Assembly (NCBI RefSeq): GCF_044704955.1
Contig: NW_027252668.1
Span: 5,704,001-5,768,000 of the forward strand
DNA: 64,000 bases
From: Pristiophorus japonicus
Lineage: Eukaryota
Direction: 5' to 3'
Part shown: positions 671 through 61,649 of the stretch, piece by piece
Numbering within the stretch: the stretch's first letter is position 1
How the letters are laid out: each line of letters opens with the position of its first letter
The notes under the pieces: generated by a model
Database searches by the model: none
The model's input: the letters and a program-made list of their open reading frames with translations, nothing else
Told to the model about the DNA's origin: nothing
Program-made: the position numbers and the translations under genes

Positions 671-685
671 TTCATGCACAAGGAC

Positions 686-14880: not shown

Positions 14881-17800
14881 ATGAGTGTTTCCCTGTATAT
14901 ATCTGTCTCTGGTTTGTGAGGGTGGGATTTTCCCTGTAGATATCTGTCTCTGTGATGTGAGGCTGGGATTTTCCCTGTATATATCTGTATCTGGTATGTG
15001 AGGGTGGGATTTTCCCTGTATATATCTGTCTCTGGTGTGTGAGAGTGGGATATTCTCTGGAAATATCTGTCTCTGGTGTGTGAGAGTGGGCTGATCCCTG
15101 TAGATATCTGTCTCTGGTATGTGAGGGTGGGATTTTCTCTGTATATATCTGTGTCTGGTGTGTGAGGGTGGGATTTTCTCTGTATATATCTTTCTCTGGC
15201 ATGTGAGAGTGGGATTTTCCCTCTACATATCTGACTGGTGTGTGAGGGTGGGATTTTCCCTGTATATATCTGTCCCTGGTATGTGAGGGTGGAATTTTCC
15301 TTGGAAATATCTGTCCCTGGTGTGTGAGGGTGGGATTTTCCCTGTACATATCTGTCTGGTATGTGAGGGTGGGATTTTCCCTGCATATATTTCTGTCTCT
15401 AGTGTGTGAGGGGAGAATTTTCTCTGTATATATCTTTCTCTGGGATGTGAGGGTGGGATTTTCCCTCTACATATCTGACTGGTGTGTGAGGGTGGGATTT
15501 TCCCTGTATATATCTGTCCCTGGTATGTGAGGGTGGGATTTTCCTTGTAAATATCTGTCCCTGGTGTGTGAGGGGAGAATTTTCCCTGTATATATCTGTC
15601 TCTGGTATGTGAGGGTGGGCTGATCCCTGTAGATATCTGTCTCTGGTATGTGAGGGTGGGATTTTCTCTGTATATATCTGTGTCTGGTGTGTGAGGGTGG
15701 GATTTTCTCTGTATATATCTTTCTCTGGGATGTGAGGGTGGGATTTTCCCTCTACATATCTGACTGGTGTGTGAGGGTGGGATTTTCCCTGTATATATCT
15801 GTCCCTGGTATGTGAGGGTGGGATTTTCCTTGTAAATATCTGTCCCTGGTGTGTGAGGGGAGAATTTTCCCTGTATATATCTGTCTCTGGTGTGTGAGAG
15901 TGGGATATTCTCTGGAAATATCTGTCTCTGGTGTGTGAGAGTGGGCTGATCCCTGTAGATATCTGTCTCTGGTATGTGAGGGTGGGATTTTCTCTGTATA
16001 TATCTGTGTCTGGTGTGTGAGGGTGGGATTTTCTCTGTATATATCTTTCTCTGGCATGTGAGAGTGGGATTTTCCCTCTACATATCTGACTGGTGTGTGA
16101 GGGTGGGATTTTCCCTGTATATATCTGTCCCTGGTATGTGAGGGTGGAATTTTCCTTGGAAATATCTGTCCCTGGTGTGTGAGGGTGGGATTTTCCCTGT
16201 ACATATCTGTCTGGTATGTGAGGGTGGGATTTTCCCTGCATATATTTCTGTCTCTAGTGTGTGAGGGGAGAATTTTCTCTGTATATATCTTTCTCTGGCA
16301 TGTGAGGGTGGGATTTTCCCTCTACATATCTGACTGGTGTGTGAGGGTGGGATTTTCCCTGTATATATCTGTCCCTGGTATGTGAGGGTGGGATTTTCCT
16401 TGTAAATATCTGTCCCTGGTGTGTGAGGGGAGAATTTTCCCTGTATATATCTGTCTCTGGTATGTGAGGGTGGGCTGATCCCTGTAGATATCTGTCTCTG
16501 GTATGTGAGGGTGGGATTTTCTCTGTATATATCTGTGTCTGGTGTGTGAGGGTGGGATTTTCTCTGTATATATCTTTCGCTGGGATGTGAGGGTGGGATT
16601 TTCCCTCTACATATCTGACTGGTGTGTGAGGGTGGGATTTTCCCTGTCTATATCTGTCCCTGGTATGTGAGGGTGGGATTTTCCCTGTAAATATCTGTCC
16701 CTGGTGTGTGAGCGGAGAACTTTCCCTGTATATATCTGTCTCTGGTATGTGAGGGTGGGATTTTCTCTGAGCATATCTGTCTCTGGTGTTTGGGAATGGG
16801 ATTTTCTCGATATATATCTGTCTCCAGTGTGTGAGGGTGGGATTTTCTCTGTATATAATCGGTCTCTAGTGTGTGAGGGTGCGATTTTCTCTGGAAATAT
16901 ACAGTCTCCGGTATGTGATGGTGGGATTTTCCCTGTATATATCAATCTCTGGTATGTGAGGGTGGAATTTGTTCTCGATATATCTGTCTCTGGTGTGTGA
17001 GGGTGGGATTTTCCCTGTATATATCGGTCTCTGGTGTGTGAGGGTGGGATTTTCCCTGTATTTATCTGTTTCTGGTGAGTGAGGGTGGGCTTTTCACTGT
17101 ATATATCTGTCTCTGGTATGTGCGGGTGGGATTTTCTCTGTATATATCTGTCTACGGTATGTAAGGGTGGGATTTTCCCGGTATATATCTGTCTCTGGTG
17201 TGTGAGGGTGGGATTTTCTCTGTATATATCTGTCCAATCTGTGAGGGTGTGATTTTCTCTGTATTTCTCTGTCTCTCGTGTGTGAGGGTGGGATTTTCTC
17301 TATGTATTTGTCTCTGGTATGTGAGGGTGAGATTTTTTCTGTATAGAATCGGTCTCTGGTGCGTGAGGGTGGGATTTTCCATGCTTATATCTGTCTCTGA
17401 TATGTGAGGGTGGGATTTGTCCTGTATGGATCTGTCTCTGGTATGTGAGGGTGAGATTTTCACTGTGCATATCTGTCTCTGGTGTGTGGGAGTGGGATTT
17501 TCTCGATATATATTTGTCTCTGGTGTGTGAGGGTGGGATTTTCCCTGTGTAGTTCTGTCTCTGGTGTGTGAGGGAGGGATTTTCCCTGTATATATACAGT
17601 CTCCGGTAGGTGAGGGTGGGATTTTCACTGTGCATATCAATCTCTGGTATGTGAGGGTGAAATTTTCTCTGTATGTAATCGGTCTCTGGTGTGTGAGGGT
17701 AGGATTTTCCCTGGAAATATCTGCCTCTGGTGTGTGAGGGTGGGATTTTCCATGCTTATATCTGTTTCTGGGATGTGAGGGTGGGATTTGTCCTGTATGG

Positions 17801-20800
17801 ATCTGTCTCTGGTATGTGAGGGTGAGATTTTCACTGTGCATATCTGTCTCTGGTGTGTGGGAGTGGGATTTTCTCGATATATATCTGTCTCTGGTGTGTG
17901 AGGGTGGGATTTTCCCTGTGTAGTTCTGTCTCTGGTGTGTGAGGGAGGGATTTTCCATGTATATATACAGTCTCCGGTAGGTGAGGGTGGGATTTTCACT
18001 GTACATATCAACCTCTGGTATGTGAGGGTGGAATTTTCTATGTATGTAATCGGTCTCTGGTGTGTGAGGGTAGGATTTTCCCTGGAAATATCTGCCTCTG
18101 GTGTGTGAGGGTGGGATTTTCCATGCTTATATCTGTTTCTGGGATGTGAGGGTGGGATTTTCCCTGTATATATCTGTCTCTGGGATGTGAGGGTGGGATT
18201 TTCTCTGTATATATCTGTCTCTGGTGTGTGAGGGTGGGATTTTCTCTGTATATATCTGTCTCTGGTGTGTGAGGGTGGGATTTTCTCTGTATATTCCTGT
18301 TTCTGGGATGTGAGGGTGGGATTTTCCCTGTATATATCTGTCTCTGGGATGTGAGGGTGGGATTTTCTCTGTATATATCTGTCTCTGGTGTGTGAGGGTG
18401 GGATTTTCTCTGTATATATCTGTCTCTGGTGTGTGAGGGTGGGATTTTCTCTGTATATTCCTGTCTCTGGCATGTGAGGGTGGGATTTTCTCTGTACAGA
18501 TCTGTCTCTGGTATGTGAGGGTGGGATTTCCCCTGTATATATCGGTCTCCGATATGTGAGGGTGGAATTGTCTCTGGTGTGTGAGGGTGGGATTGTTCCT
18601 GTATATATCTGTCTAGTATGTGAGGGTCAGATTTTCTCTGTATATATCGGTCTATGGTGTGTGAGGGTTGGATTTGTCCTGTATATATCGGTCTCTGGTG
18701 TGTGAGGGTTGGATTTTCCCTGTATATATCTGTTTCTGGTGTGTGAGGGTGGGATTTTCCCTGTATATATCTGTCTCTGCTGTGTGAAAGTGGGATTTTC
18801 TCTATATATATATATATCTGTCTCTGGTGTGTGAGGGTGGGATTTCCCCTCTATATATCGGTCTCTGGTGTGTGAGGGTAGGATTTTCCTCGTATATATC
18901 TGTCACTGGTATGTGAGGGTGGCATTTTCCCTGTATTTTATCTGTTTCTGGTGAGTGAGGGTGGGATTTTCACTGTATATATCTGTCTACGGTATGTGAG
19001 GGTGAGATTTTCCCTGTATATATCTGTCTCTGGTGTGTGAGGGTGAGATTTTCCCTGTATATATCGGTCTCTGGTGTGAGGGTGGGATTTTCTCTGTATA
19101 TATCTGTCTAGTCTGTGAGGGTGTGATTTTTTCTGTATTTCTCTGTCTCTCGTGTGTGAGGGTGGGCTTTTCACTGTATATATCTGTCTCTGGTATGTGA
19201 GGGTGAGATTTTCTCTGTGCATATCTGTCTCTGGTGTGTGGGAGTGGGATTTTCTCCGTATATATCTGTCTCTAGTGTGTGAGGGTGGGATTTTCTCTGT
19301 ATAGAATCGGTCTCTGGTGCGTGAGGGTGGGATTTTCTCTGTATATATCTGTCTAGTCTGTGAGGGTGTGATTTTTTCTGTATTTCTCTGTCTCTCGTGT
19401 GTGAGGGTGGGCTTTTCACTGTATATATCTGTCTCTGGTATGTGAGGGTGAGATTTTCTCTGTGCATATCTGTCTCTGGTGTGTGGGAGTGGGATTTTCT
19501 CCGTATATATCTGTCTCTAGTGTGTGAGGGTGGGATTTTCTCTGTATAGAATCGGTCTCTGGTGCGTGAGGGTGGGATTTTCCATGCTTCTATCTGTCTC
19601 TGGTATGTGAGGGTGGGATTTGTCCTGTATGGATCTGTCTCTGGTATGTGAGGGTGAGATTTTCTCTGTGCATATCTGTCTCTGGTGTGTGGGAGTGGGT
19701 TTTTCTCGATATATATCTGTCTCTGGTGTGTGAGGGTGGGATTTTCCCTGTGTAGTTCTGTCTCTGGTGTGTGAGGGAGGGATTTTCCCTGTATATATCT
19801 GTCTCTGGTGTGTGATGGTGGGATTTTCCCTGTATATATCAGTCTCTGATGTGTGAGGGTGGGATTTTCCCTGTATATATCTGTCTACTCTGTGAGGGTC
19901 AGATTTGCTCTGTATATCTCTGTCTCTGGTGTGTGAGGGTGGAATTTTCCCTGTACATATCTGTCTCTGATGTGTGAGGGTGGGATTTTCCATGCTTCTA
20001 TCTGTCTCTGGTATGTGAGGGTTGGATTTGTCCTGTATATATCGGTCTCTGGTGTGTGAGGATGGAATTTTCCCTGAATATATCTGTCTCTGGTGTGTGA
20101 GGGAGGGCTTTTCCCTGTATATATCTGTCTCTGGTGTGTGAGGGTGGGATTTTCCCTGTACATATCAATCTCTGGTATGTGAGGCTGGAATTTTCCCTGT
20201 ATATATCTGTCTCTGGTGTGTGAGGGTGGGATTTTCCCTGTATATATCTGTCTCTGGTGTGTGAGGGTGCGATTTTCCCTGCAGATCTGCAGTCTCCGGT
20301 ATTTGAGGGTGGGATTTTCCCTGAATATATCTGTCTCTGGTGTGTGAGGGTGCTATTTTCTATGTATATATCTGTCTCTGGTGTGTGAGGGAGGGAATTT
20401 CTCTGTATAGAATCGGTCTCTGGTGCGTGAGGGTGGGATTTTCCATGCTTATATCTTTCTCTGGTATGTGAGGGTGGGATTTGTCCTGTATGGATCTGTC
20501 TCTGGTGTGTGATAGTGGTATTTTCACTGTATACACCTGTCTCTGGTGTGTGAGGGTGGGATTTTCTCTGTACATATCAATCTCTGGTGTGTGAGAGTGG
20601 GATTTTCTCTGTATATACCTGCCTCTCGTGTGTGAGGGTGGGATTTTCCCTGTAAATACCTATCTCTGGCATGTGAGGGTGGTATTTTCCATGCATATAT
20701 CTGCCTCTGGTGTGTGAGGGTGGAATTCTCCCTGTATATATCTGTCTCTGGTATGTGAGGGTGGGATTTTCTCTGTATATATCTGTCTCTGGTGTGTGAG

Positions 20801-23800
20801 GGTGGGATTTTCCCTGCAGATATGCAGTCTCAGGTATTTGAGGGTGGGATTTTCCCTGTATATATCTGTCTCTGGTATGTGAGGGTGGGATTTTCTCTGT
20901 ATATATCTGTCTCTGGTGTGTGAGGGTGGGATTTTCCCTGCAGATATGCAGTCTCAGGTATTTGAGGGTGGGATTTTCCCTGAATATATCTGTCTCTGGT
21001 GTGTGAGGGTGGGATTTTCCCAGTAAATATCTGTCTACTTTGTGAGGGTCAGATTTTCTCTGTATATCTCTGTCTCTGGTGTGTGAGGGTGGAATTTTCC
21101 CTGTACATATCTGTCTCTGGTGTGTGAGGGTGGGATTTTCCATGCTTCTATCTGTCTCTGGTATGTGAGGGTTGGATCTGTCCTGTATATATCGGTCTCT
21201 GGTGTGTGAGGATGGAATTTTCCCTGAATATATCTGTCTCTGATGTGTGAGGAAGGGCTTTTCCCTGTATATATCTGTCTCTGGTATGTGAGGGTGAGAT
21301 TTTCTCTGTGCATATCTGTCTCTGGTGTGTGGGAGTGGGATTTTCTCCGTATATATCTGTCTCTAGTGTGTGAGGGTGGGATTTTCTCTGTCTAGAATCG
21401 GTCTCTGGTGCGTGAGGGTGGGATTTTCCATGCTTCTATCTGTCTCTGGTATGTGAGGGTGGGATTTGTCCTGTATGGATCTGTCTCTGGTATGTGAGGG
21501 TGAGATTTTCTCTGTGCATATCTGTCTCTGGTGTGTGGGAGTGGGCATTTCTCGATATATATCTGTCTCTGGTGTGTGAGGGTGGGATTTTCCCTGTGTA
21601 GTTCTGTCTCTGGTGTGTGAGGGAGGGATTTTCCCTGTATATATCTGTCTCTGGTGTGTGATGGTGGGATTTTCCCTGTATATATCAGTCTCTGATGTGT
21701 GAGGGTGGGATTTTCCCTGTATATATCTGTCTACTCTGTGAGGGTCAGATTTGCTCTGTATATCTCTGTCTCTGGTGTGTGAGGGTGGAATTTTCCCTGT
21801 ACATATCTGTCTCTGATGTGTGAGGGTGGGATTTTCCATGCTTCTATCTGTCTCTGGTATGTGAGAGTTGGATTTGTCCTGTATATATCGGTCTCTGGTG
21901 TGTGAGGATGGAATTTTCCCTGAATATATCTGTCTCTGGTGTGTGAGGGAGGGCTTTTCCCTGTATATATCTGTCTCTGGTGTGTGAGCGTGGGATTTTC
22001 CCTGTACATATCAATCTCTGGTATGTGAGGCTGGAATTTTCCCTGTATTTTTCTGTCTCTGGTGTGTGAGGGTGGGATTTTCCCTGTATATATCTGTCTC
22101 TGGTGTGTGAGGGTGCGATTTTCCCTGCAGATCTGCAGTCTCCGGTATTTGAGGGTGGGATTTTCCCTGAATATATCTGTCTCTGGTGTGTGAGGGTGCT
22201 ATTTTCTATGTATATATCTGTCTCTGGTGTGTGAGGGAGGGAATTTCTCTGTATAGAATCGGTCTCTGGTGCGTGAGGGTGAGATTTTCCATGCTTATAT
22301 CTTTCTCTGGTATGTGAGGGTGGGATTTGTCCTGTATGGATCTGTCTCTGGTGTGTGATAGTGGTATTTTCACTGTATACACCTGTCTCTGGTGTGTGAG
22401 GGCGGGATTTTCTCTGTACATATCAATCTCTGGTATGTGAGGGTGGGATTTTCTCTGTATATAATTGGTCTCTGGTCTGTGAGGGTGGGATTTTCTATGT
22501 ATCTATCTGTCTCTGGTGTGTGAGGGTGGGATTTGCTCTGTATATATCTGTCTCTGGTATGTGAGTGTGGGATTTTCTATCCCAATATCTGTCTCTGGTA
22601 TGTGAGGGTGGGATTTTCTCTGTGCATATCTGTCTCTGGTCTGTGAGGGTGGGATTTTCCCTGTATATATCTGTCTCTGGTATGTGTGGATGCGATTTTC
22701 CCTGTATATATCTGTCTCTGGTGTGTGAGGTTGGGATTTTCTATGTATATATCTGTCTCTGGTGTGTGAGAGTGGGATTTTCTCTGTATATACCTGCCTC
22801 TCGTGTGTGAGGGTGGGATTTTCCCTGTAAATACCTATCTCTGGCATGTGAGGGTGGTATTTTCTCTGCATATATCTGTCTCTGGTATGTGAGGGTTTGA
22901 TTTTCTCTGTATATATCTGTCTCTGGTATTTGAGAGTGTCATTTTCCCTGTATATAATCGGTCTCTGGTGTGTGAGGGTGGGATTTTCCATGCATATATC
23001 TGCCTCTGGTGTGTGAGGGTGGAATTCTCCCTGTATATATCTGTCTCTGGTATGTGAGGGTGGGATTTTCTCTGTATATATCTGTCTCTGGTGTGTGAGG
23101 GTGGGATTTTCCCTGCAGATATGCAGTCTCAGGTATTTGAGGGTGGGATTTTCCCTGAATATATCTGTCTCTGGTGTGTGAGGGTGGGATTTTCCCAGTA
23201 AATATCTGTCTCTGGTATGTGAGGGTGGGATTTTCTCTGTATATATCTGTCTCTGGTGTGTGAGGGTGGGATTTTCCCTGCAGATATGCAGTCTCAGGTA
23301 TTTGAGGGTGGGATTTTCCATGCATATATCTGCCTCTGGTGTGTGAGGGTGGAATTCTCCCTGTATATATCTGTCTCTGGTATGTGAGGGTGGGATTTTC
23401 TCTGTATATATCTGTCTCTGGTGTGTGAGGGTGGGATTTTCCCTGCAGATATGCAGTCTCAGGTATTTGAGGGTGGGATTTTCCCTGAATATATCTGTCT
23501 CTGGTGTGTGAGGGTGGGATTTTCCCAGTAAATATCTGTCTACTTTGTGAGGGTCAGATTTTCTCTGTATATCTCTGTCTCTGGTGTGTGAGGGTGGAAT
23601 TTTCCCTGTACATATCTGTCTCTGGTGTGTGAGGGTGGGATTTTCCATGCTTCTATCTGTCTCTGGTATGTGAGGGTTGGATCTGTCCTGTATATATCGG
23701 TCTCTGGTGTGTGAGGATGGAATTTTCCCTGAATATATCTGTCTCTGGTGTGTGAGGAAGGGCTTTTCCCTGTATATATCTGTCTCTGGTGTGTGAGGGT

Positions 23801-24785
23801 GGAATTTTCCCTGTACATATCAGTCTCTGGTATGTGAGGGTTGGATTTGTCCTGTATATATCGGTCTCTGGTGTGTGAGGGAGGGATTTTCCCTGTATAT
23901 ATCTGTCTCTGGTGTGTGAGGGTGAGATTTTCTGTGTATATGTCGGTCTCTGGTATGTGAGGGAGGGATTTTCCCAGTATATATCGGTCTCCGATATGTG
24001 AGGGTGTAATTTTCTCTGTATATAATCGGTCTCTGGTATGTGAGGATGGGATTTTCTATGTGCATGTCAGTGTGGTTTGTGAGTGCGGGATTTTCTCTGT
24101 ATATATCTGTCTGGTGTGTAATGGTGGGATTTATTCTCTATATATCTGTCTCTGGTTTGTGAGGCTGGGATTTTCCCTGTATATACTCTGCTCTGCTCTG
24201 CTGTGTATATATCTGTCTCTGGTGTGCGAGGGTGGGATTTTCCCTGTATATATCTGTCTCTGGTATGTGAGGGTGCGATTATCCCTGCAGAGATGCAGTC
24301 TCTGGTATTTGAGGGTGGGATTTTCCCTGAATATGTCTGTCTCTGGTGTGTGAGGGTGCTATTTTCTCTGTATATATCAATCTCTGGTGTGTGAGGGTGG
24401 GATTTCCTCTGTATGTATCTGTCTCTAGTATGTGAGGGTGGGATTTTCTCTGTGCATATCTGTCTCTGGTCTGTGAGGGTGGGATTTTCCCTGTATATAT
24501 CTGTCTCTGGTATGTGAGGATGGGATTTTCCCTGTATATATCTGTCTCTGGTGTTTGAGGGTGGGATTTGCTCTGTATATATCTGTCTCTGGTATGTGAG
24601 TGTGGGATTTTCTCTCCCTATATCTGTCTCTGGTATGTGAGGGTGGGATTTTCTCTGTGCATATCTGTCTCTGGTCTGTGAGGGTGGGATTTGCTCTGTA
24701 TATATCTGTCTCTGGTGTGTGAGTGTGGGATTTTCTCTGTATATATCTGTCTCTGGTGTGTGAGTGTGGGAATTTCCCTGAATAT

Positions 24786-25790
24786 GCTCTGCTGGGGCCC
24801 CAGCTGTTTACATTGTACATTAATGATTTGGACGAGGGGATTAAATGTAGTATCTCCAAATTTGCGGATGATACTAAGTTGGGTGGCAGTGTGAGCTGCG
24901 AGGAGGGTGCTATGAGGCTGCAGAGTGACTTGCATAGGTTCGGTGAGTGGGCAAATGCATGGCAGATGAAGGATAATGTGGATAAATGTGAGGTTATCCA
25001 CTTTGGTGGTAAAAACAGAGAGAGAGACTATTATCTGAATGGTGACAGATTAGGAAAAGGGGAAGTGCAACGAGACCTGGGTGTCATGGTACATCAGTCA
25101 TTGAAGGTTGGCATGCAGGTACAGCAGGCGGTGAAGAAAGCAGATGGCATTTTGGCCTTCATAGCGAGGGGATTTGAGTACAGGGACAGGGAGGTATTGC
25201 TACAGTTGTACAGGGCCTTGGTGAGGCCACACCTGGAGTATTGTGTAGAGTTTTGGTCTCCTAACTTGAGGAAGGACATTCTTGCTATTGAGGGAGTGCA
25301 GCAAAGGTTCACCAGACTGATTCCCGGGATGGCGGGACTGACATATCAAGAAAGACTGGATCAACTGGGCTTGTATTCACTGGAGTTCAGAAGAATGAGA
25401 GGGGATCTCATAGAAACGTTTAAAATTCTGATGGGTTTAGACAGGTTAATGCAGGAAGAATGTTCCCAATGTTGGGGAATTCCAGATCCAGGGGTCACAG
25501 TCCAAGGATAAGGGGCAATCCATTTAGGACTGAGGTGAGGAGAAACTTCTTCACCCAGAGAGTGGTGAACCTGTGGAATTCTCTACCACAGAAAGTTGTT
25601 GAGGCCAATTCACTAAATATATTCAAAAAGGAGTTAGATCTAGTCCTTACTACTTGGGGGATCAAGGGGTATAGCGAGAAAGCAGGAATGGGGTACTGAG
25701 GTTGCATGTTCAGCCATGAACTCATTGAATGGCGGTGCAGGCCCGAAGGGCCGAATGGCCTACTCCTGCACCTATCTTCTGTGTTTCTGT
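24786..25790 (+). mobile_element. 5'-truncated CR1 LINE inside satellite
   Basis: LGPQLF..YINDL, KFADDTKL, RPHLEYC, 3'UTR. Confidence 0.93.
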
Positions 25791-26245
25791 ATATCTGTCT
25801 CTGGTGTGTGATGGTGGGATTTTCCCAGTATATATCTGTCTCTGGTCTGTGTGTGTGGGATTTTTCCTGTATAAATCTGTCTCTGGTGTGTGAGGGTAGG
25901 ATTTTCCTTGTATATAATCTGTCTCTAGTCTGTGAGGGTGGAATTTTCCCTGTATATATCTGTCTCTGGTGTGTGAGGGTGGCATTTTCCCTGTATATAA
26001 TCGGTCTCTGTTGCGTGAAGGTGGGATTTTCTCTGTATATAATCGGTCTCTGGTATGTGAGGGTGGGATTTTCCCTGTATACATCTGTCTCTGGTGTGTG
26101 AGGTGGGATTTTCCCTGTATATATCTGCCTCTGGTGTGTGAGGGTGGGATTTGTCCTGTATATATCTGTCTCTGGTGTGTGAAGGTGGTATTTTCCCTGT
26201 ATATATCTGTCTCTGGTGTGTGAGTGTGGGATTTTCCCTGAATAT

Positions 26246-27245
26246 GCTGTGCTGGGGCCCCAGCTGTTTGCATTGTACATTAATGATTTGGACGAGGGGA
26301 TTAAATGTAGTATCTCCAAATTTGCGGATGACACTAAGTTGGGTGGCAATGTGAGCTGCGAGGAGGATGCTATCAGGCTGCAGAGTGACTTGGATAGGTT
26401 TGGTGAGTGGGCAAATGCATGGCAGATGAAGTATAATGTGGATAAATGTGAAGTTATCCACTTTGGTGGTAAAAACAGAGAGACAGACTATTATCTGAAT
26501 GGTGACAGATTAGGAAAAGGGGATGTGCAACGAGACCTGGGTGTCATGGTACATCAGTCATTGAAGATTGGCATGCAGGTACAGCAGGCGGTTAAGAAAG
26601 CAAATGGCATGTTGTCCTTCATAGCGAGGGGATTTGAGTACAGGGGCAGGGAGGTATTGCTATAGTTGTACAGGGCCTTGGTGAGGCCATACCTGGAGTA
26701 TTGTGTACAGTTTTGGTCTCCTAACTTGAGGAAGGACATTCTTGCTATTGAGGAAGTGCAGCGAAGGTTCACCAGACTGATTCCCGGGATGGCGGGACTG
26801 ACCTATCAAGAAAGACTGGATCAACTGGGCTTGTATTCACTGGAGTTCAGAAGAATGAGAGGGGATCTCATAGAAACGTTTAAAATTCTGACGGGTTTAG
26901 ACAGGTTAGATGCAGGAAGAATGTTCCCAATGTTGGGGAAGTCCAGAATCAGGGGTCATAGTCCAAGGATAAGGGGTAATCCATTTCGGACTGAGATGAG
27001 GAGAAACTTCTTCACCCAGAGAGTGCTGAACCTGCGGAATTCTCTACCACAGAAAGTTGTTGAGGCCAATTCACTAAATATATTCAAAAAGGAGTTAGAT
27101 ATAGTCCTTACTAGTCGGGGGATCAAGGGGTATGGCGAGAAAGCAGGAATGGGGTACTGAGGTTGCATGTTCAGCCATGAACTCATCGAGTCTGTACCGC
27201 CATTCAAAGTGCTGAATGGCCTACACCTGCACCTATTTTCTGTAT
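26246..27245 (+). mobile_element. 5'-truncated CR1 LINE inside satellite (duplicate of 24786-25790)
   Basis: Same 5' junction CCCTGAATATGCT.TGCTGGGGCCCC; premature stop near 26663. Confidence 0.93.
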
Positions 27246-28183
27246 ATCTGTCTCTGGTGTGTGAGGGTGGGATTTTCCCTGAATATAATCGGTCTTTGGT
27301 GTGAGAGGGTGGTATTTTCCCTGTGTTTATCGGTCTCTGGTGTGTGAGGGTGGGATTTTCCCTGTATATATCTGTCTCTGGTATGTGAGGGTGGGATTTT
27401 CCCTGTATATATATATCTGTCTCTGGTGTGTGAGGGTGGGATTTTTTATGTATATATATCTGTCTGGTATGTGAGGGTCGGATTTTCTCTGTATATATCT
27501 GTCTCTGCTATGTGAGGGTGGAATTTTCCCTGTATATATCTATCTCTGGTGTGTGAGGGTGGGCTTTTCCCTGTATATATCGGTCTCTGGTATGTGAGGG
27601 TTGGATTTTCTATGTATATATCTGTCTCTGGTGTGTGAGGATGGGATTTTCTCTGTCTTTCTCTGTCTCTGGTGTGTGAGGGTGGGATTTCCTCTGTATA
27701 TATGTCTCTGGTATGTGAGTTTGGGATTTTCCCTGTATATATGTGTCTCTGGTATGTGAGGGTGGGATTCTCTCCATTTATCTGCCAGTTTCTGAAATGT
27801 GAGTGTGGATCTTCCTCTGTACCTGACAGTTTCTGCTTAATTGAAAATTGATGCCGCCTATCTCATACCGTTAAATTCAACACCTTTCTTGTCTGTCAAT
27901 GCTGTTGCAACTACATTTGTTGTTTTACTATTATCTTCACTTGGAGTATCCTTGGCACTGTTTGGGACATGAACTCTGCTCTTCACCCATTTTTTGGACA
28001 TTTAACTACTATTTTTACTGTAGTTTTTCACTGAGTACTCATTTATTAGTTTGAAGTCCCTTTTAGTTTAATTTTGTTAATTTTAATTTACAAATGGGAT
28101 TGACAATTGTCTTGTTGTAAAATCCTGCTGCAAGATCCCATAATTCAGTTCTGACCTGCGACGGATATTCAAAGTACCTCGGT

Positions 28184-35139: not shown

Positions 35140-35506
35140 CAAGTGCCCCCTTATTAAAGGAGCATTAAAACAGACAAATTTAACTTTGGCATTAAATGGA
35201 TCAAATTAAAATTTGGTTCCTGGGGGTGATGATGCACTCCAGTCCCTCTGGCGCCCATCTCTCACAGAAGGCCACGATCGTACCGGTGAACACCGCATGC
35301 TCCATCTCCAGGGACACCCTGGCACGAACATAACCGTGGAAGAGAGGCAGGCAGTCGGGCTGAACACCCCCTCGACCGCCCGTGGCCTGGACCGGTTAAT
35401 GGCTACCTTGGCCATGCCCAGGAGCAGTCCTACGAGGAGGCCTTCCGATCTGCCCGCTCCCCTCCGCACAGGGGGCCCAAAGATCAGGAGCGGGGGACTG
35501 AAGTGC
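35140..35506 (-). mobile_element. Tx1-like 3' fragment (related subfamily)
   Basis: LHFSPPLLIFGPPVRRGAGRSEGLLVGLLLG matches the ORF2 C-terminus at ~3100-3400; different 3'UTR. Confidence 0.85.
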
Positions 35507-35999
35507 AAACGATTAACGAGTGTCAACCTTATGCAGGAGCCATCAAGCAAACTCTACCAAGTAACGTTCATTGGTTCATGTGCAACGGCCTGCGGAGAAC
35601 CATGAGATGCTACTGTAAGTACTGCTTACAACCAGAGTCATCAGAGGACCATTTTATCCTCAAGTCGAAAGTAAGAGACTGTCCACACACAGCCCGAGAA
35701 TGGCTTCTCCCTTCCCCCACTCACTCCATGTTCCGGAACTAGTTCCTGCTCCACTCTGCCTCTGACAAACAAACAGCCCCCGACGGAACTAAACCAGGAA
35801 CGTTCACTCCTGGTTAGGAGAGAGAAAGCAGCAATGATTGTAAACAGCAGATTCTGCCCATTCTGTCTCCCTTCCCGCTGGACACACACTGTCCACACAC
35901 AGCACGAGAATGGCCTCTCCATCTCCCCACTCACACCACGCACTGATACTGCTTCTTGCTCCACACCGCCCCTTACACACAGACCCCGACTCCCCCCGG

Positions 36000-36260: not shown

Positions 36261-36544
36261 TAAAAATCAATGTGCACCTTTCCCAATTTACTTTTATCAG
36301 AATCTGACAAAGGAACTGGGCCTGGGGGGAAAAGGACAGATAATGATTAAAGCTGGGAGCTTTGTCCCTTGGAGATGCTCAATTTGGGATCATTCCGTGC
36401 AGGGTATTTCTCTCTCCATGAGCCCGTCTTCACAAAGCAATCCTGCAGAAACATCGGTGGGACGAGGGAGTGGGAGTGTTTGCTGGGACCGTGCAGGAGT
36501 TAATATCTGACAGAAACAGTCCGAGATTAGTTTAAACACTCTCA

Positions 36545-38337
36545 CTGTGAGTAATATCGAAGTGCACAATCAAGAGGTTATAGGTAGGGAGGAACTTATT
36601 ACAATCACTGTCACTAATGAAGTAGTACTCGGTAAAATAATGGGACTAAAGGCGGACAGGTCCCTTGGACCTGATGGCTTACATCCTGTGGTCTTAAGAA
36701 ATGTGGCTGCAGAGATAGTGGATGCATTGTTTGTAATCGACCAAAATTCCCTGGATTCTGGGGAGGTTCTAGCAGATTGGAAAATTGCAAATGTTCAAAA
36801 AAGGAGGCAAACAAAAAGCAGGAAACTATAGACCAGTTAGCCGAACATCTGTTGTTGTGAAAATGCTGGAGTCCAGTATTAAGGAAGCAGTAACAGGTCA
36901 TTTGGAAAAGCATGATTCAATCAAACAGAGTCAGCATGGTTTTATGAAAGGGAAATCATGTTTGATAAATTTGCTGGAGGTCATTGAGGATATAACAAGC
37001 ACGGTAGATAAGGGGCAACCTGTGGACGTGGTGTATTTGGATTTCCAGCAGGCATTCGATAAGGTGCCACATAAGTGGTTACTACACAAGATAAAAGCTC
37101 ATGGGATTGGGAGCAATATATTAGCATGGATAGAGAATTGGCTAACTAACAGAAAACAGAGAGTCAGGATAAATGGGTCATTTTATGGTGGGCAAACAGT
37201 GATGAGTGGGGTGCCACAGGGATCGGTGCTGGGTCCTCAACTATTTACAATCAATATTAATGACTTGGATGAACGGGCCGAGTTTAATTTAGCCAAGTTT
37301 GCTGATGATACAAAGATGGGTGGGAAAGCAAATTGTGATGAGGACACAGTACATATGCAAAGGGATCTCGACAGGCTAAGTGAGTGTGCAAACATTTGGC
37401 AGATAAGAATATAAGAACATAACAAATAGGAGCAGGAGTAGGTCATATGGCCCCTCGAGCCTGCTCCGCCATTTAATACAATCATGGCTGATCCGCTCAT
37501 AGACTCAGGTTCACTTCCAGATGGAGTATAATGTGGGAAAATTAGAGGTTATCCATTTTGGCAGAAATAATAGAAAAGAAAATTATAATTTAAATGGAGA
37601 AAAATTGCAACGTGCAGCAGTACAGAGAGCCCTGGGGGTCCTTGTACATGAAACACAAAAAGTTAGTATGCAGGTACAGCAAGTAATCAGGAAGTCAAAT
37701 GGAATGTTGGCCTTTATTGCAAGAAGGATAGAGTCTAAAAGCAGAGAATTCCTGCTGTACAGGGTATTGGTAATGCCACACCTGGAGTACCGTGTACAGT
37801 TTTGGCCTACATATTTAAGGAAGAATATACTTACATTGGAGGCTGTTCAGAGAAGGTTCACTCGGTTGATTCCGGAGATGAGGGGGTTGAGTTATGAGGA
37901 TAGGTTTGAGTAGGTTGGATCTGTACACATTGGAAATCAGAAGAATGAGAGGTGATCTTATTGAAACTTATAAAATAATAAGGGGGCTTAACAAGGTGGA
38001 TGCAGAGAGGATATTTCCACATAGGGCAACTAAAACTAGATTACATAGTCTTAAAATAAGGGGCCGCCCATTTAAAATTGAGGAGGAATTTCTTCTCTCA
38101 GAGGGTTGTAGATCTATGGAATTATCTGCCCCAGACAACTGTGAAGGCTGTGTCATTGAATATATTTAAGGCGGAGATAGACAGATTTTTGATTGATAAG
38201 GGAGTAAATGGTTATGGGGAGGGAGCAGGGAAGTGGAGCTGAGTCCATGATCAGATCAGCCGTGATCTTATTGAATGGCAGAGCAGGCTCGAGGAGCTAA
38301 GTGGCCTACTCCTGTTCCGATTTGTTATGTTCTTATG
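36545..38337 (+). mobile_element. Degenerate CR1 LINE (paralog of 4085-6090)
   Basis: GNYRPVS, DFQQAFDKVPH, SGVPQGSVLGP, FADDTK; tail TGTTATGTTCTTATG. Confidence 0.9.
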
Positions 38338-48344: not shown

Positions 48345-51300
48345 TAGCTGTCAGTCGCTGATATGTGAGTGTTGTTTTTTACCTCAGTTACTGGCAGGCA
48401 AATTTGGGTTTTATTATACACCTGTCAAATTCTGGTATGTGATTATCATTCTGTTTCTGTCTGTCTGTGTATTTGTGTGGGTTTATTCTGCACTTTGTCA
48501 GTTTCTGTATGGGAGTGCGTGTTTTATTCTCTACCTGGCAGCCTCTGGTATGGTAATGTGGGATTTCATCTGTACCTGTCCATCTGTGGCTGGTATCTGA
48601 GTGGGGTTTAATCTGTCATTTCTGGGATGTGAGTGTTGGGTATAATCTGTACCTGTCATTTCTGGTATGTGATTGTGGGGTTTAATCTGTACCTGTCAGT
48701 TTCTGGTGTATGAGAGGGGGGTTTAATCTGTACCTGTCAGTTTCTGATATCTGACTGTGGGGTTTAATCTGTACCTATCTGTTTCTGGTATGTGAGTTGT
48801 GTGTTTTAATCTGTACTTGTCAATTTCTGGTACGCGAGTGTTGGATTTATTTTATACGCGTCAGTCTCTAGTATGCGAGTGTGGAGTTTAATCTGCATAT
48901 GTCTGATTCTGGTATGTGAGAGTTGGGTTTCATCTGTACCTGGCAGGTTCTGATATGTAAGTGTGGGGTTTGTTCTGTACCTTTCTGCCCGAGTATGTGA
49001 GTGTAATGTCTATTCTGTATCTGTCAGTGAGTGTGGGGGATATTCGATACATCTTTGTTTCAGGTGTGTGTGTGTGTGTTAGATTTAGTCTGTACCTGGT
49101 TGTTTCTAGTATACAAATGTTGTGTTAAATCTGTACCTGTCAGTTTCCACTTTGTTAGTGTGGGGTTATTCTGTAGCTGTCTGTCTCTGGTATACGAGTG
49201 TGGGATTTAATCTGTACCTGTCATTTCTGGTATGTGAGTGTGGGGTATAATCTGTACCTGTCATTTCTGGGATGTGAGTGTGGGTTTTATTCTGTGTCTA
49301 TCATTTTCTGTTATGTGAGGGTGGGCTTTTCTCTATCTTTCTGGCCTTGGTATGGGAGGATGGAATTTCATCTGTACCTGCCAATCTGTGGCTGGTATAT
49401 GAGAGTGGGGTATAATCTGTACCTGTCACTTTCAGGGATGCGAGAGTGGGATTTAATCTGCACCTGTCGTTTCTGGTGAGTGTTGGGTAGAATCTGGTCC
49501 TGAAGGATTTTCTCGCTGTCAACTTCTTCTACTAAGTTTTTCCCCTAAATTTGTCAGTTTCTGGTACGGGAATGTACCTGTCAGCATTATATGTGTGAGT
49601 ATGAGTGTTTCCCTGTATATATCTGTCTCTGGTGTGTGAGGGTGGGATTTTCCCTGTATATATCTGTCTCTGGTATGTGAGGGTGGGATTTTCTCTGTAT
49701 ATATCTGCCGTTGGTATGTGAGGATTGGATTTTCCCATTATTTATCTGTCTCTGGTATGTGAGGGTGGGATTTTCCCTGTATATGTCAGTCTCTGCTGTG
49801 TGAGGGTGGGATATTCCCTGTATATATCTGTTTCTGGTATGTGAGAGTGGGATTTTCCCTGTGTATATCTGTCTCTGGTATGTGAGAGTGGGATTTTCCC
49901 TGTATATATCTGTCTCTGGTATGTGAGGGTGGGATTTTCCCTGTATATATGCAGTCTCCGGTATATGAGGGTGGGATTTTCCCTGAATATATCCGTCTCT
50001 GGTATGTGAGGGTGGGATATTCGATGTATATATCTGTCTCTGGTATGTGAGGGTGGGGTTTCCCTGTATATATCTGACTCTGGTATTTGAGGGTGTGGTT
50101 TTGCCTGAATCTATCTGTCTCTGCTGCGTGAGGGTGTGATTTTCCCTGTATATATCTGTCTCTGCTGTGTGAGGTTGTGATTTTCCCTGTATATATCTGA
50201 CTCTGGTATGTGAGGGTGGGATTTTCTCTGTGTGTATACAGTCTCCGGTATGTGAGGATGGGATTTTCCCTGTATATATCTGTCTCTGGTATGGGAGGGT
50301 GGGATGTTCTCTGTATGTATCTGTCTCTGGTGTGTGAAGGTGAGATTTGCTCTGTATATATCTCTCTCTGGTATGTGAGGGTGGGATTTCCTCTGTATAT
50401 ATCTCTCTCTGGTGTGTGAATAGAAACATAGAAACATAGAAAATAGGTGCAGGAGCAGGCCATTCAGCCCTTCTAGCCTGCACCGCCATACAATGAGTTC
50501 ATGGCTGAACATGAAACTTCAGTACCCCCTTCCTGCTTTCTCGCCATACCCCTTGATCCCCTGAGTAGTAAGGACTTCATCTAACTCCCTTTTGAATATA
50601 TTTAGTGATTTGGCCTCAACTACTTTCTGTGGTAGAGAATTCCACAGGTTCACCACTCTCTGGGTGAAGAAGTTTCTCCTCATCTCGGTCCTAAATGGCT
50701 TACCCCTTATCCTTAGACTGTGACCCCTGGTTCTGGACTTCCCCAACATTGGGAACATTCTTCTTGCATCTAACCTGTCTAAACCCGTCAGAATTTTAAA
50801 TGTTACTATGAGGTCCCCTCTCATTCTTCTGAACTCCAGTGAATACAAGCCCAGTTGATCCAGTCTTTCTTGAAAGGTCAGTCCCACCATCCCAGGAATC
50901 AGTCTGGTGAATCTTCGCTGCACTCCCTCAATAGCAAGAATGTCCTTCCTCAAGTTAGGAGACCAAAACTGTACACAATACTCCAGGTGTGGCCTCACCA
51001 AGGTCCTGTACAACTGTAGCAACACCTCCCTGCCCCTGTACTCAAATCCCCTCGCTATGAAGGCCAACATGCCATTTGCATTCTTAACCGCCTGCTGTAC
51101 CTGCATGCCAACCTTCAATGACTGATGTACCATGACACCCAGGTCTCGTTGCACCTTCCCTTTTCCTAATCTGTCACCATTCAGATAATAGTCTGTCTCT
51201 CTGTTTTTACCACCAAAGTGGATAACCTCACATTTATCCACATTATACTTCATCTGCCATTCATTTGCCCACTCACCTAACCTATCCAAGTCACTCTGCA

Positions 51301-52020
51301 GCCTCATAGCATCCTCCTTGCAGCTCACACTGCCACCCAACTTAGTGTCATCCGCAAATTTGGAGATACTACATTTAATCTCCTCGTCTAAATCATTAAT
51401 GTACAATATAAACAATGTGGGATTTTCCATGCTTATATCTGTCTCTGGTATGTGAGGGTGCGATTTACCCTGTATATATCTGTCTCTGGTGTGTGAGGGT
51501 GGGATTTTCTCTGTATATATCTCTCTCTGGTGCGTGAATGTGGGAATTTCCCTGTATATATCTGTCTGTGGTATGTGAGAGTGGGATTTTCCCGGTATAT
51601 ATCAGTCTCTGGTGTGTGAGGGTGGGATTTTCCCTGTATTTATACAGTCTCCGGTATGTGTGGGTGGGATTTTCCCTGTATATATCACTCTCTGGTATGT
51701 GACGGTGGAATTTTCCCTGTATTTTTCTGTCTCTGGTGTGTGAGGGTGGGATTTTCCACGCTTATATCTGTCTCTGGTATGTGAGAGTGGGATTTTCCCT
51801 GTTTATATCTGTCTCTGGTGTGTGAGGGTGGTATTTTCCCTGTATATATCAATCTCTGGTATGCGAGGGTGTAATTTTCCCTGTATTTTTCTGTCTCTGG
51901 TATGTGAGGGTGGAATTTTCCCGGTATATATCTGTCTCTGGTCTGTGAGGATGCGATTTTCTCTATTTATCTGGCAGTTTCTGAAATGTGAGTGTGGGTC
52001 TTCCTCTGTACCTGACAGTT
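48345..52020. repeat. 41-bp satellite block, unit 2 (core ~49600-51960)
   Basis: Same monomers and flanks as unit 1, much shorter. Confidence 0.93.
50420..51413 (-). mobile_element. 5'-truncated CR1 inside satellite, antisense
   Basis: ORF 50519-51430 open (FADDTKL...GIKGYGEK); (ATAGAAAC)n tail at 50420. Confidence 0.94.
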
Positions 52021-52444: not shown

Positions 52445-52587
52445 CCACACATCAGTCATTTTGTATTTGCAGACAAACTGCTTCTTACGGGTCTTCAGCG
52501 GGACAAATAAATTGCTGAGCAATCATTTTAATCAGAATGTAAGCACGGTGCTGGGACACCTTCCCTCCAATTACAACTGGTCACTGC

Positions 52588-54107
52588 AATAAAGCAATAA
52601 AGAAAGGAAAGATAGATTACGAAGGTAAACTTGCGCAAAACATAAAAACGGATAGTAAAAGCTTTTACAGACATATAAAACGGAAAAGAGTGACTAAAGT
52701 AAATGTTGGTCCCTAAGAAGATGAGAACGGGGATTTAATAATGGGAAATGTGGAAATGGCTGAGACCTTAAACAATTATTTTTCTTTGGTCTTCACAGTG
52801 GAAATCATGTTTAACTAATTTACTGGAATTCTTTGAGGATATAACGAGCATGGTGGATAGAGGTGTTCCGATGGATGTGGTGTATTTAGATTTTCAAAGG
52901 GCATTCGATAAGGTGCCACACAAAAGGTTACTGCAGAAGATAAGGGTACGCGGAGTCAGAGGAAATGTATTAGCATGGATAGAGAATCGGCTGGCGAACA
53001 GAAAGCAGAGAGTCGGGATAAATGGGTCCTTTTCGGGATGGAAATCGGTGGTTAGTGGTGTGCCACAGGGATCGGTGCTGGGACCACAACTGTTTACAAT
53101 ATACATAGATGACCTGGAAGAGGGGACAGAGTGTAGTGTAACAAAATTTGCAGATGACACAAAGATTAGTGGGAAAGCAGGTTGTGTGGAGGACACAGAA
53201 AGACTGCAAAAAGATTTAGATAGGTTAAGCGAATGGGCTAAGGTTTGGCAGATGGAATACAGTGTCGGAAAGTGTGAGGTCATCCACCTTGGGAAAAAAA
53301 CAGTAAAAGGGAATATTATTTGAATGGGGAGAAATTACAACATGCTGCGGTGCAGAGGGACCTGGGGGTCCTTGTGCATGAAACTCTTTTGGAGTTCCTG
53401 CATGAAACTCCAAAAAGTTAGTTTGCAGGTGCAGCAGGTAATCAGGAAGGCGAATGGAATGTTGGCTTTCATTGCGAGAGGGATGGAGTACAAAAGCAGG
53501 GAGGTCCTGCTGCAACTGTACAGAGTATTGGTGAGGCCGCACCTGGAGTACTGCGTGCAGTTTTGGTCACCTTACTTAAGGAAGGATATACTAGCTTTGG
53601 AGGGGGTACAGAGACGATTCACGAGGCTGATTCCGGAGATGAGGGGGTTACCTTATGATGATAGATTGAGTAGACTGGGTCTTTACTCGTTGGAGTTCAG
53701 AAGGATGAGGGGTGATCTTATAGAAACATTTAAAATAATGAAAGGGATAGACAAGATAGAGGCAGAGAGGTTGTTTCCACCGGTCGGGGAGATGAGAACT
53801 AGGGGGCACAACCTCAAAATACGGGGGAGTCAATTTAAAACTGAGTTGAGAAGGAATTTCTTCTCCCAGAGGGTTGTGAATCTGTGGAATTCTCTGCCCA
53901 AGGAAGCAGTTGAGGCTAGCTCATTGAATGTATTCAAATCACAGATAGATAGATTTTTAACCAATAAGGGAATTAAGGGTTACGGGGAGCGGGCGGGTAA
54001 GTGGAGCTGAGTCCACGGCCAGATCAGCCATGATCTTATTGAATGGCGGAGCAGACTTAAGGGGCTAGATGGCCTCCTCCTGTTCCTAATTCTTATGTTA
54101 TGTTATG
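52588..54107 (+). mobile_element. CR1 LINE (unit 2 only), internally deleted, same subfamily as 1-460
   Basis: DFQRAFDKVPH, SGVPQGSVLGP, FADDTK; tail TTATGTTATGTTATG; empty site at ~28400. Confidence 0.92.
53381..53410 (-). mobile_element. Tiny Tx1 3'-terminal footprint(s) in CR1
   Basis: 53381-53396 is the exact reverse complement of 3626-3641; TGCATGAA duplicated (53375-53382, 53399-53406). Confidence 0.7.
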
Positions 54108-57910: not shown

Positions 57911-59473
57911 ATGGCAGCAGGAGATAAGAGCAAAGAATTGCCTACAACTGTTAAAGGTGGGCAAGCACCATCTGAAGTTTCGCTCGATTTAATTCTCGAA
58001 CAGTTGAAAGAATACATAGAGCAACAATTCAACTTATCTAAAACCTGTATTAAGATCGAACAAAAGTACGGAACCTCCAAAGGACAATGGTCCTTGGACG
58101 AGATTAAAAGGTTCTGGGGAAAAACGACCCATATGAAAAATAAAGAGCGAAATAGATGGTCCCTAGCGGTTATGGGCCAGATTCAAAAGCGGAATGAAAT
58201 TATAATGCGTTCCCAACATGATTGAGAACTGACCAGTACAAAGGATCAATTGCAAGCAGTTCGTGCACAGCTGCGACAGAAAAAGCTTGAACTTGAAAAG
58301 CTGGAAGCGGAAGTTAAAGATCTTAAAGGTGAAATTAAAGAATGGAAAAAATCATTAGGTCAAGAGACAGTAATAGGAAAAGGAAAATGTATTGATCAAT
58401 TCCCAGGGTATCCATGTTTGGATAAATTAAAAGCGCAAACCCGAAGACACGACCGAGGAATAGATACGGATTCTGAATCCTCCGACAATACAGTGTCGGA
58501 GGATGATGAATTAGGGGTGCACTTTGCCCCGTTTAAAAAAAGACGAGTTGTAGTCAAATCAGAAGAGACTGCGGATGAGGGCGGAACCAAAAAAACAAAG
58601 AGAAGGGTGTATGCAGAATACTTAGTTCATGCTCCGGCAGACCCAGAGAAAATTGATAAATGGTCCAAGGAATTGCCCAATCCAAAGAAAGGGGGAGTAA
58701 AAACGTGGGACCAATTGGACCGCTTAAGAAATATATATCAACTTCATCCCTGGGACGGAGTGCAAATTTTGACCATAATGGTGCCAAAAACACAGGGAAG
58801 AAAATTGCACGACAAGGTAGATGAAGCTTTGGGGCAGAATGAGCAAGAATTAGACGCAGGATGGGAGGTGATTAAACACTGGCTGCAAGCCTTCAGTCCA
58901 GCTAAGACAGACTGGGGAAAAATTGCAGCCTGCCAACAGAAAGGAACAGAGGAGGTCCTGGAGTATGACGAGCAGTTTAGATGCACGTGGCTAGAACATT
59001 CGGGTATGAATAATACGGATGAGGAATTGGATGAACAAGTGTTTGGACCCCTGAAAGCAGCTTTCGTGGCAGGTCTAAAGCCAGAAGTGTCCAAAATGCT
59101 TAAGGTAGTGTTACCGGACTGGGAAGGTAGAGGAACTACCTTTGCAGCATTGGTGGATCGATGTAACCAATTAGATCGGGATATGGGAGTTAAAGTCCGA
59201 GCTGTTCAGGCTATGGGATGGAAATCCCAGGATTCCGATAAACAGTTATTAGGAAAATTACCCGGAAAATGTCATTATTGTGGGAAAGAAGGTCACTGGG
59301 CCAAGACGTGCAGGGCAAATCAGAAAGATCGTGGCTGGGGAAGAGGACGCAGCCAGGGATACAATTCAGCCAACAAGCCAGGCTTGTCACAAGATAACGA
59401 CCTCATAGAAGCATTTAAGCGACTGGCAATACAACAACAGAAGGAGTTACTTGGGATAGCAAAAAACGATTAG
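57911..59473 (+). pseudogene. gag: ERV gag, one in-frame TGA (58223-58225)
   Basis: ORFs 57911 and 58250 share a frame; MHR-like QQKGTEEVLEYDEQF; knuckle CHYCGKEGHWAKTC. Confidence 0.88.
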
Positions 59474-60295: not shown

Positions 60296-61649
60296 ATGTA
60301 TAAATGTACTGTATTATTGATTGTAGGTATCCTAGGCATAGGCCTACTTCTTACTAGCCGACCCTCTGCACCAAAGGGAAATAGTAGGGTAGCAAGGGAA
60401 TTACATGTAAATACCTTTTTATAATATGTCATACATTTATGCCAAACAAGGTAACATTTCTAGTTGTTGGGTGTGTTCGTATATTCCTATTCACTCAAAG
60501 GGAGGGATTCCCTTGAGGCCAGTTCCCTTGAATATCTCGGAAATGGCTGAGTGGATAATTAATCAAAATAAAACAGGCAATGCATTTCAGGATACGGAAA
60601 ACTGGGCACGTAAATGGAAGTCAGCAGGTTACAATCTGACTACCTTTGAAGGGGGATACCAACCGTGCTACAATAATTCCAAACGGCCCCCATTTTTTGT
60701 TATCACTAATACAACGGGAATAGGAAGACCGGGGGAATCGGTCTGTCTGATTAGAAACATCAAAGGAGGCCAAAATATGGGGTATAGTAACTGCTCCCGG
60801 AATTATAATAAAATCAAGCCACGGAACCGTCCAAACTGGGCCGATGTGGGAATTTTTAACGTAACGGGGATTCTGAATAAAACAGATGGAAAAGCCTGGA
60901 CAGGCCCCGGAGTGTTGCTGACAAAGAAACAGCTAACATTCATTGCCTATAATGGCACCTATTGGGTGTGTGGCCACAAGGCCTACCCTTGGCTGCCCCA
61001 GAATTGGATGGAATCCTGCTATTTAGCCTACATTGTGCCTTATATGTCTCATATAAAGTCACTGTCGGAACATTTACACCGTCCTAAGAGAGTTATCACA
61101 GAAACAGAGAGGTTCTTTGCCATTCTGATCCCCGGATATGGGACCGCCAAACTGGCAAGGGAATCCATTAACATGGCATCCATTGTGGAACGGGTAGCCA
61201 ATGATACCTCAGAGGCCCTAGTTAAAATCAATGCAGAAATGGTAGCAATCCACACAGTAGCCCTACAGAATAGACTGGCCCTTGATTACATCCTGGCTGA
61301 AAAGGGAGGTACTTGCGCCCTACTCGGAACTGAGTGTTGCACATATATTCCAGATAGCTCCGAAGAAATTACCCACTTAGCGGAGCATATCCAAAAGGAG
61401 GTAGAAAAACTTAAGCAACCTCCATCATTCACTTTGAGGAGTGGAGCCACTGAATGGCTAGGTTCAACAGGAACTTCATTGGTGGAAGGTTTAATTCTAT
61501 TTGTTGTAATTGTTTTACTTTTATATTGTTTGTTTATGTTGATTAAATGTTGTTGCGACCAGGTGGCTGTAGCTGCTGTCCCGAAGGTGAGACACCTTGC
61601 AGGTCCCAGCAGACCGTCTGTACGTGGCACAGGGGTATGTTATGCTTAA
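60296..61649 (+). pseudogene. env: ERV env, gamma-type, single +1 frameshift near 60423
   Basis: Signal peptide from ATG 60296; CWVC; RPKR furin site; LQNRLALDYILA immunosuppressive domain; CX6CC; TM anchor. Confidence 0.9.

Follow-up and report, generated by a model that had tools for sequence, protein, structure and literature searches.

Introduction

Retrotransposons of the Tx1 clade are known to insert into other transposons. Tx1L of Xenopus targets Tx1D, a piggyBac element (PMC4494074, PMC1950540). In crocodilians, Tx1-Mar targets Mariner-N4_AMi, Tx1-9_AMi targets Harbinger, and both Tx1-8_Crp and Tx1-4_AMi target LTR retrotransposons, while U2 and microsatellites are among the other targets of the clade (PMC4494074). 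The endonuclease Tx1L-EN nicks almost exclusively its own target, and the endonucleases of the Tx1 clade can be highly sequence-specific (PMC1950540). The text of PMC4494074 covered here contains no CR1 target, and the reviews PMC3747384, PMC8869645, and PMC6719617, in the portions covered here, add none for Tx1. No CR1-targeting Tx1 was found in the literature at the level of titles and abstracts; Repbase, Dfam, and Kojima and Fujiwara (2004) lie outside that scope and may hold one.

Some site-specific elements insert repeatedly at one site. The R1 element of Drosophila makes tandem insertions through its TSD, with variable TSDs and microhomology at the junctions, and a 3′ read-through RNA has been proposed (PMC2718515). 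Copies of SINEU-3, which is mobilised by Tx1-Mar, are arranged in tandem around a TSD by sequential insertions at one site, and for SINEU-2 both target duplication and target truncation occur (PMC4494074). Retrotransposon stubs of 5–20 nt were not found in the literature at the level of titles and abstracts, a scope that leaves most subscription papers outside.

Here I report a short interruption, or scar, in a CR1 element of Pristiophorus japonicus. The window analysed is a stretch of 64,000 nucleotides (contig NW_027252668.1, positions 5,704,001 to 5,768,000), and all positions below are counted from its first letter. An earlier note on this DNA had proposed that the scar consists of one or two extremely truncated Tx1 insertions.

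Results

The histone-gene units and their CR1 elements

Judged from its ORFs and paralogous blocks, the window is made up of two diverged copies of a histone-gene unit together with LINE fragments, a 41-nt satellite, and retrovirus-like remnants. The unit is about 30 kb long and lies at ~3690–32800 and again at ~36400–63100, each copy having its own LINE insertions. H1, H3, H2A, and H2B are backed by Pfam in the second unit, and H4-like frames are also present. The satellite, with a period of 41 nt, occupies ~14000–28000 and ~48500–52000. It is broken up by copies of a third CR1 subfamily, of which there are four (sites near 25085, 26545, 46527, and 51127; mutually 93–96% identical), the one at 46527 lying outside the satellite. 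The endogenous-retrovirus-like remnants of the second unit, on the plus strand, carry a 415-aa frame with a weak zinc knuckle (58226–59473) and a 412-aa frame that matches TLV_coat with E=1.9e-16 (60411–61649). A piece of a CR1 3′ end, ~100 nt long and inverted, was seen at 4961–5061 and 37416–37516 on the minus strand, within the paralogous CR1 pair near 5000/37500.

The scar lies in an element of the second unit, called the host CR1 here (Table 1). I take it to be a CR1; the label follows the earlier note and general features of the clade. Its frame gave a profile match to RVT_1 (E=1.8e-19), and its named relatives are from cartilaginous fishes (Callorhinchus, Leucoraja, Hypanus, Mobula, and Chiloscyllium). 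A reverse transcriptase ORF2 resembling CR1-type proteins, a microsatellite tail at the 3′ end, and the lack of a long TSD are the marks of the CR1 clade, and the host CR1 has all three; a clear TSD of any kind was not seen. The element is confined to the second histone-cluster unit. The paralogous site at 28396/28398 is empty of it while the flanks there are ~97% identical, which bears out the earlier claim that the scarred CR1 was inserted separately from its sister. The sister CR1, found in two parts at the start of the window, is in turn missing at the paralogous place near 36420. The host and sister CR1s are two separate young insertions. At the 5′ junction of the sister (3680–3710 compared with 36400–36430), the flank resembles CR1 sequence. 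This likeness suggests that the 5′ joining of the sister may have been guided by annealing.

Table 1. Features of the scarred site, the host CR1, and the Tx1-filled sister CR1 (positions in the window)
Feature	Position	Strand	Description
CR1 anchor	53374–53381	+	The same anchor adjoins both Tx1 3′ ends, at 672 and 3641
Tx1 15-mer	53382–53396	-	Identical to the final 15 nt of Tx1 copy B
6-nt Tx1-like piece	53397–53402	-	Tx1 positions 18–23 from the end, copy A type; positions 16–17 skipped
Target repeat	53399–53405	+	7 nt; TSD, or re-copy from read-through RNA
5-nt piece	53406–53410	-	First 5 nt of Tx1 cDNA; replaces 4 nt of the empty site
CR1 resumption	53411–53421	+	In register; the upstream frame stops at 53419–53421
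Host CR1	52586–54107	+	5′-truncated LINE, from the ORF2 RT region to a 3′ tail of short TTATG-type repeats
Sister CR1, 3′ part	1–457	-	Continues beyond the window; matches the host CR1 at 431 of 453 aligned nt
Target duplication left of copy A	458–461	+	4 nt
Tx1 copy A	462–671	+	210 nt; 3′ UTR only
Target duplication between copies A and B	672–685	+	14 nt; identical to 3641–3654
Tx1 copy B	686–3640	+	5′-truncated ORF2 (RT, weak zf-RVT) and 3′ UTR without poly(A) tail
Sister CR1, 5′ part	3641–3701	-	61 nt, 60 of them identical to 53321–53381; joined to the unit-1 flank

Two tandem Tx1 insertions in the sister CR1

The locus used for comparison turned out to be richer than the earlier note had stated, as it contains two tandem Tx1 insertions, copies A and B. 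Copy B has one in-frame stop (1463–1465) and a profile match to RVT_1. Its zf-RVT match (E=3.5e-5, 24.8 bits) stays under the cutoff of 27.5, as does that of the Alligator protein annotated as 'transposon TX1 149 kDa protein'. The latter is the best informatively named match of copy B (E=1.6e-93, 97% coverage), with 50% identity to the upstream ORF piece over 260 aa. By homology to named Tx1 ORF2 proteins, the donor at 686–3640 can be placed in the Tx1 clade. No Tx1 endonuclease survives in the window, where copy B is truncated at 686 and no intact copy was found.

Over their last 90 nt, 80 of 88 aligned positions agree between copies A and B. Since this difference of ~9% compares with ~4.5% between the two CR1s, the copies are independent insertions at one nucleotide and come from different source elements. 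It was seen that the last 3 nt of the 14-nt duplication are in frame with the ORF2 of copy B. This suggests that the 5′ junction of copy B may have formed with microhomology.

The Tx1 3′ end (645–678 and 3614–3647) lacks poly(A) and can form a short hairpin, which reaches into the target if transcription reads through. By eye only, the end also looks like a splice acceptor. A notable RNA hairpin at the Tx1 end was considered and rejected, as the fold lacks significance when the transcript ends with the element (z=0.35 and 0.82); for a read-through transcript, copy A gave z=-2.0 and copy B -0.01. A derivation of the Tx1 3′ end from its target, by capture of an inverted copy, was likewise rejected. 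The alignment looks suggestive, but it is not significant: shuffles did as well in 443 of 3000 cases for copy B and 262 of 3000 for copy A (362 and 60 of 2000 under stricter scoring), and 47 of 579 other Tx1 30-mers resemble the inverted target equally.

Anatomy of the scar

Direct comparison confirmed the earlier reading that 53381–53396 is the exact reverse complement of 3626–3641, in the same orientation relative to CR1. Because 53381 and the bases upstream of it are shared CR1 sequence, only 15 nt of this match are informative (53382–53396, the reverse complement of 3626–3640). Over 53321–53396, the scarred site and the filled junction are identical at 75 of 76 nt. When both strands of the window were searched, the exact 15-mer occurred twice. 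Allowing up to 3 mismatches gave four matches, namely the end of copy B and the scar (0 mismatches each), the end of copy A (2), and a place at 42890 (3), while shuffles gave a mean of 2.77 matches at that threshold. The probability of a further 14-nt match at a fixed position is ~4e-9 under uniform base frequencies. The Tx1 3′ end in the scar is intact, and it lies at the nick of the family and in the orientation of the family.

The 6-nt piece follows the 15-mer after a skip of two Tx1 positions; alternatively, the skip may be read as 2 untemplated nt. The last 4 nt of this piece, TGCA, double as microhomology with the target repeat. Both the 7-nt repeat and the 4-nt microhomology are present, but with the adjoining flank changed as well (53406–53410), the repeat may be no genuine TSD. 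The altered stretch shares a common prefix of 5 nt with the Tx1 cDNA versus 1 nt with the empty allele.

The earlier note had also stated that the 25 extra nt shift the CR1 frame. The net gain is indeed 25 nt (29 nt replacing 4), with the stop of the upstream frame just beyond, but the frame of the host CR1 was already broken by an A-run frameshift near 53295–53301, ~75 nt upstream of the scar. Because the host CR1 is both 5′-truncated and frameshifted, nothing functional is lost at the stop. The scar has no function, and it is expected to be without consequence.

The empty allele of the target

What did the site look like before the scar? In the empty allele, read from 454–457 and from homologues, the sister CR1 has a Ser codon after V-H-E. 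Among 128 CR1-like proteins, 18 homologue matches (one counted twice) have Glu before the site, followed by Ser in 11, Thr in 3, and Lys in 4, the Lys ones being distant. The four closest homologues that read H-E at the site, 85–90% identical downstream, all have Ser. Since the sister, 11 of the 14 non-Lys matches, and the four closest homologues agree on Ser, the empty allele most likely had a Ser codon, and 53406–53410 most likely represents a derived change. Thr is found at this residue in 3 of the 14 matches and in the second CR1 subfamily of the window, and a Thr codon of the right kind would be one base from the 53406–53410 variant. Thr in related subfamilies leaves a small chance of a variant that existed before the scar.

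Origin of the scar

A Tx1 origin, as the earlier note had proposed, is the best-supported reading: position, orientation, the exact 15-nt match to copy B, and the 6-nt match after the 2-nt skip all agree. On these comparisons, the scar is probably a Tx1-derived stub from an aborted insertion. That its letters come from Tx1 by some route, conversion and inheritance included, is very probable. The models were compared by parsimony and by enumeration of products, with either the empty allele or one bearing the 53406–53410 variant as the starting point. Starting from the empty allele, the parsimony cost was 11–17 with a Tx1 template versus 17–26 with local sequence only; starting from the variant allele, the two tie.

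Local template switching, or quasi-palindrome mutation, is known to leave short inverted and direct repeats side by side. The scar has a perfect 12-nt direct repeat (53375–86 and 53399–410) and a perfect 10-nt inverted repeat (53387–96 and 53406–15), and the final allele folds strongly (z=-4.18, with 0 of 200 shuffles as good). These features fit a purely local switch, during replication or repair, to the other strand of a CR1 allele in which the variant was present beforehand. The likeness to Tx1 would then be a coincidence, arising because the Tx1 end forms a short hairpin similar to the target. The earlier note had set a local inverted duplication against its own proposal, and the outcome depended on the starting allele. 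From the empty allele, the local duplication fails, as the best single out-and-back inverted switch is 8 edits from the observed scar versus 4 for one Tx1 insertion. From the variant allele it fits, at 1 edit versus 2; fixed-end scoring can move these edit counts by ~1. However, the variant is needed first, and it is 3 edits from the sister allele and spells the first 5 nt of the Tx1 cDNA. The breakpoints must also recreate the Tx1 end. When 10,290 switch combinations were applied to the empty allele, none gave the Tx1 15-mer at the nick; with the variant allele, 16 of 10,290 did, all at the Tx1 nick, and the strand jump departs 5 nt past the nick and not at it. Since the local model must coincide with the Tx1 end twice, independently and at the Tx1 nick, it is very unlikely, short of refuted. 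A quasi-palindrome mutation is similar in its adjacent short inverted and direct repeats, but would fit only if the 5-nt variant pre-existed.

The 21-nt block alone discriminates weakly between the two models, since there is a loose resemblance between the Tx1 end and the inverted target: the edit distance of the block is 3 to either Tx1 copy, 3 to the inverted variant allele, and 4 to the inverted empty allele. At 2.5–5% divergence, the probability of at least 7 edits in 30 nt is 1.4e-5 to 9e-4.

The main alternative to reverse transcription at the locus is abortive gene conversion, in which a break, perhaps the Tx1 nick, was repaired by brief copying of a Tx1-filled homologous CR1. No local reverse transcription would be involved, and the same letters would be expected. 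A filled allele of the donor type is present in the window, and the CR1 just upstream of the scar is nearer to the sister (60 of 61 nt) than the downstream part is (431 of 453). This difference in identity, which is the flank comparison for co-conversion, is not significant, however (Fisher p=0.50). Moreover, the 2-nt skip, the 7-nt repeat, and the 5-nt piece would still require extra steps. Conversion is considered unlikely here.

Could the scar be older than the insertion of the host CR1, or be what is left of something longer? The source element of the CR1 may already have had the 25 nt, or longer tandem Tx1 copies may have been deleted down to a remnant. The two-piece architecture is shared with the tandem at 462–3654, and the 10 synonymous and 10 non-synonymous codon differences between the sister and host CR1s fit different source elements. 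On the other hand, the host CR1 reaches ~795 nt upstream of the site versus 61 nt for the sister, so it did not come from the sister locus, and erosion would call for two deletions, each nearly complete. Nor do the first removed bases form a splice donor; splicing of Tx1 from a CR1 transcript was rejected as the first missing bases are not GT. Inheritance or erosion is thus rated as highly improbable.

An artefact of assembly or polishing, with reads of Tx1-filled CR1 copies mis-mapped onto the scarred copy, is the least probable of these alternatives. The repeat is young, both added pieces are the start of a junction present elsewhere, and the A-run frameshift is nearby. But the 2-nt skip and the 7-nt repeat belong to the scar and are absent from both filled junctions in the window, and the flanks, which are clean, align colinearly with the paralogous unit.

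A possible course of the insertion

Under the preferred reading, a sequence-specific Tx1 would have made an aborted insertion into a young CR1 copy through target-primed reverse transcription. The Tx1 endonuclease would nick the CR1 sense strand after 53381, with an ambiguity of 1 nt, and the freed CR1 end, that is, the 3′ end of the anchor, would prime reverse transcription on the 3′ end of the Tx1 RNA. Synthesis would proceed for ~21 nt, with the 2-nt skip, and arrest at a TGCA that is also present in the target. The 4-nt TGCA microhomology may then have closed the 5′ junction.

The 5 nt at 53406–53410 would also be templated by Tx1, by one of three routes. The favoured route, held at slightly less than an even chance, is re-priming within the same event on an RNA that reads through into the target; such an RNA would carry TGCA twice, ~26 nt apart. 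A plausible second is an earlier 5-nt insertion with the loss of 4 nt of the target, which would have left the site still cuttable, in parallel with the tandem of copies A and B. Later copying within the locus, guided by the hairpin, is possible but rather unlikely. The sequence is compatible with one event or with two, and the earlier note was right to allow for both.

Is the CR1 site a specific target of Tx1?

Three Tx1 3′ ends (copy A, copy B, and the scar) lie at one CR1 nucleotide and antisense to CR1, which in this one window is 3 of 3 ends with this Tx1 terminus. The inserts differ in length (210, 2955, and 15–21 nt, respectively), as do the target repeats (4, 14, and 7 nt). A tblastn search gave 12 rows for CR1-type loci spanning the site, two of them halves of one locus. 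Of the resulting 11 loci, 2 are hit and both belong to one subfamily (p=0.018, or 0.028 with paralog pairs merged). In the nearest unhit sites, 30 of 33 nt match, with differences at 2 and 4 nt beyond the nick. The earlier observation that both copies of this subfamily are hit holds. The sites near 5190 and 37645, cited there as empty, are empty, but they derive from one duplicated insertion (4066–5768 versus 36525–38212) and are not independent.

Three junctions in two CR1 copies of one window are thus suggestive of Tx1 specificity for the CR1 site, but not proof. The published criterion for target specificity is that more than 20% of flanks are one repeat, as given in the text of PMC4494074 consulted here. 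Against blanket targeting of CR1, a diverged Tx1-like fragment at 35200–35507 (minus strand) has no CR1 adjoining it; it is 82.5% identical to the end of the copy B ORF2 and has a different 3′ UTR.

I also looked for the site and the junction elsewhere. An 18-nt motif of the CR1 site gave 19 loci in GTDB genomes, all bacterial, where ~17 are expected by chance, and none aligned to the window beyond ~28 nt. A 47-aa query spanning the junction gave 4 and 7 proteins, none with the junction. None of the 128 CR1-like proteins retrieved translates a Tx1/CR1 junction, which is weak evidence, as shark repeat proteins are sparse in the sets.

Discussion

The scar is of value as one more independent junction, the third, that points towards a Tx1 aimed at coding sequence in another LINE. 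Should the same be seen across the genome, such scars would form a directly countable record of aborted target-primed reverse transcription, telling how early synthesis breaks off and in what way the ends are closed, and a new pair of site-specific endonuclease and target would be supplied. The pattern also suggests that CR1 could be under pressure to alter its target site. As a warning, indels of 5–25 nt in young repeats can be overlooked retrotransposon stubs.

A broader scenario is tentative and, at present, unlikely to hold in full. A Tx1 family of cartilaginous fishes may be specialised on one site in the RT gene of a young CR1 subfamily, and its failed attacks may commonly leave frameshifting scars of 5–25 nt, some of them by telomerase-like re-copying of the RNA 3′ end between two TGCA motifs ~26 nt apart. 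If this specialisation is true, the family would inactivate a rival retrotransposon in a sequence-specific way, and repeat annotation would miss the scars that it leaves.

By analogy, the locus may work like R1 or Tx1-Mar. It shares with R1 an invariant 3′ junction, TSDs of 14 bp and shorter, microhomology or untemplated bases at the 5′ junctions, and tandem re-insertion into the TSD. In contrast, R1 belongs to another clade and targets the 28S rDNA, and the parts of PMC2718515 covered here give no example as short as 5–21 nt. As with SINEU-3, sequential insertions at one site sandwich a TSD. SINEU-3 copies, however, are described as non-autonomous SINEs with U2-derived bodies in a DNA-transposon target, whereas the scar is a bare terminal stub of a LINE. 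The transposon-targeting Tx1 elements are similar in their Tx1-like ORF2, a fixed point of insertion inside another repeat, target duplications, and tandem copies around a TSD. They differ from the present case, in which a CR1 LINE of a cartilaginous fish is entered in antisense within its coding region. The mechanism itself is thus familiar from these systems; what is unusual is the apparent target in a CR1 coding region and the extreme shortness of the insert.
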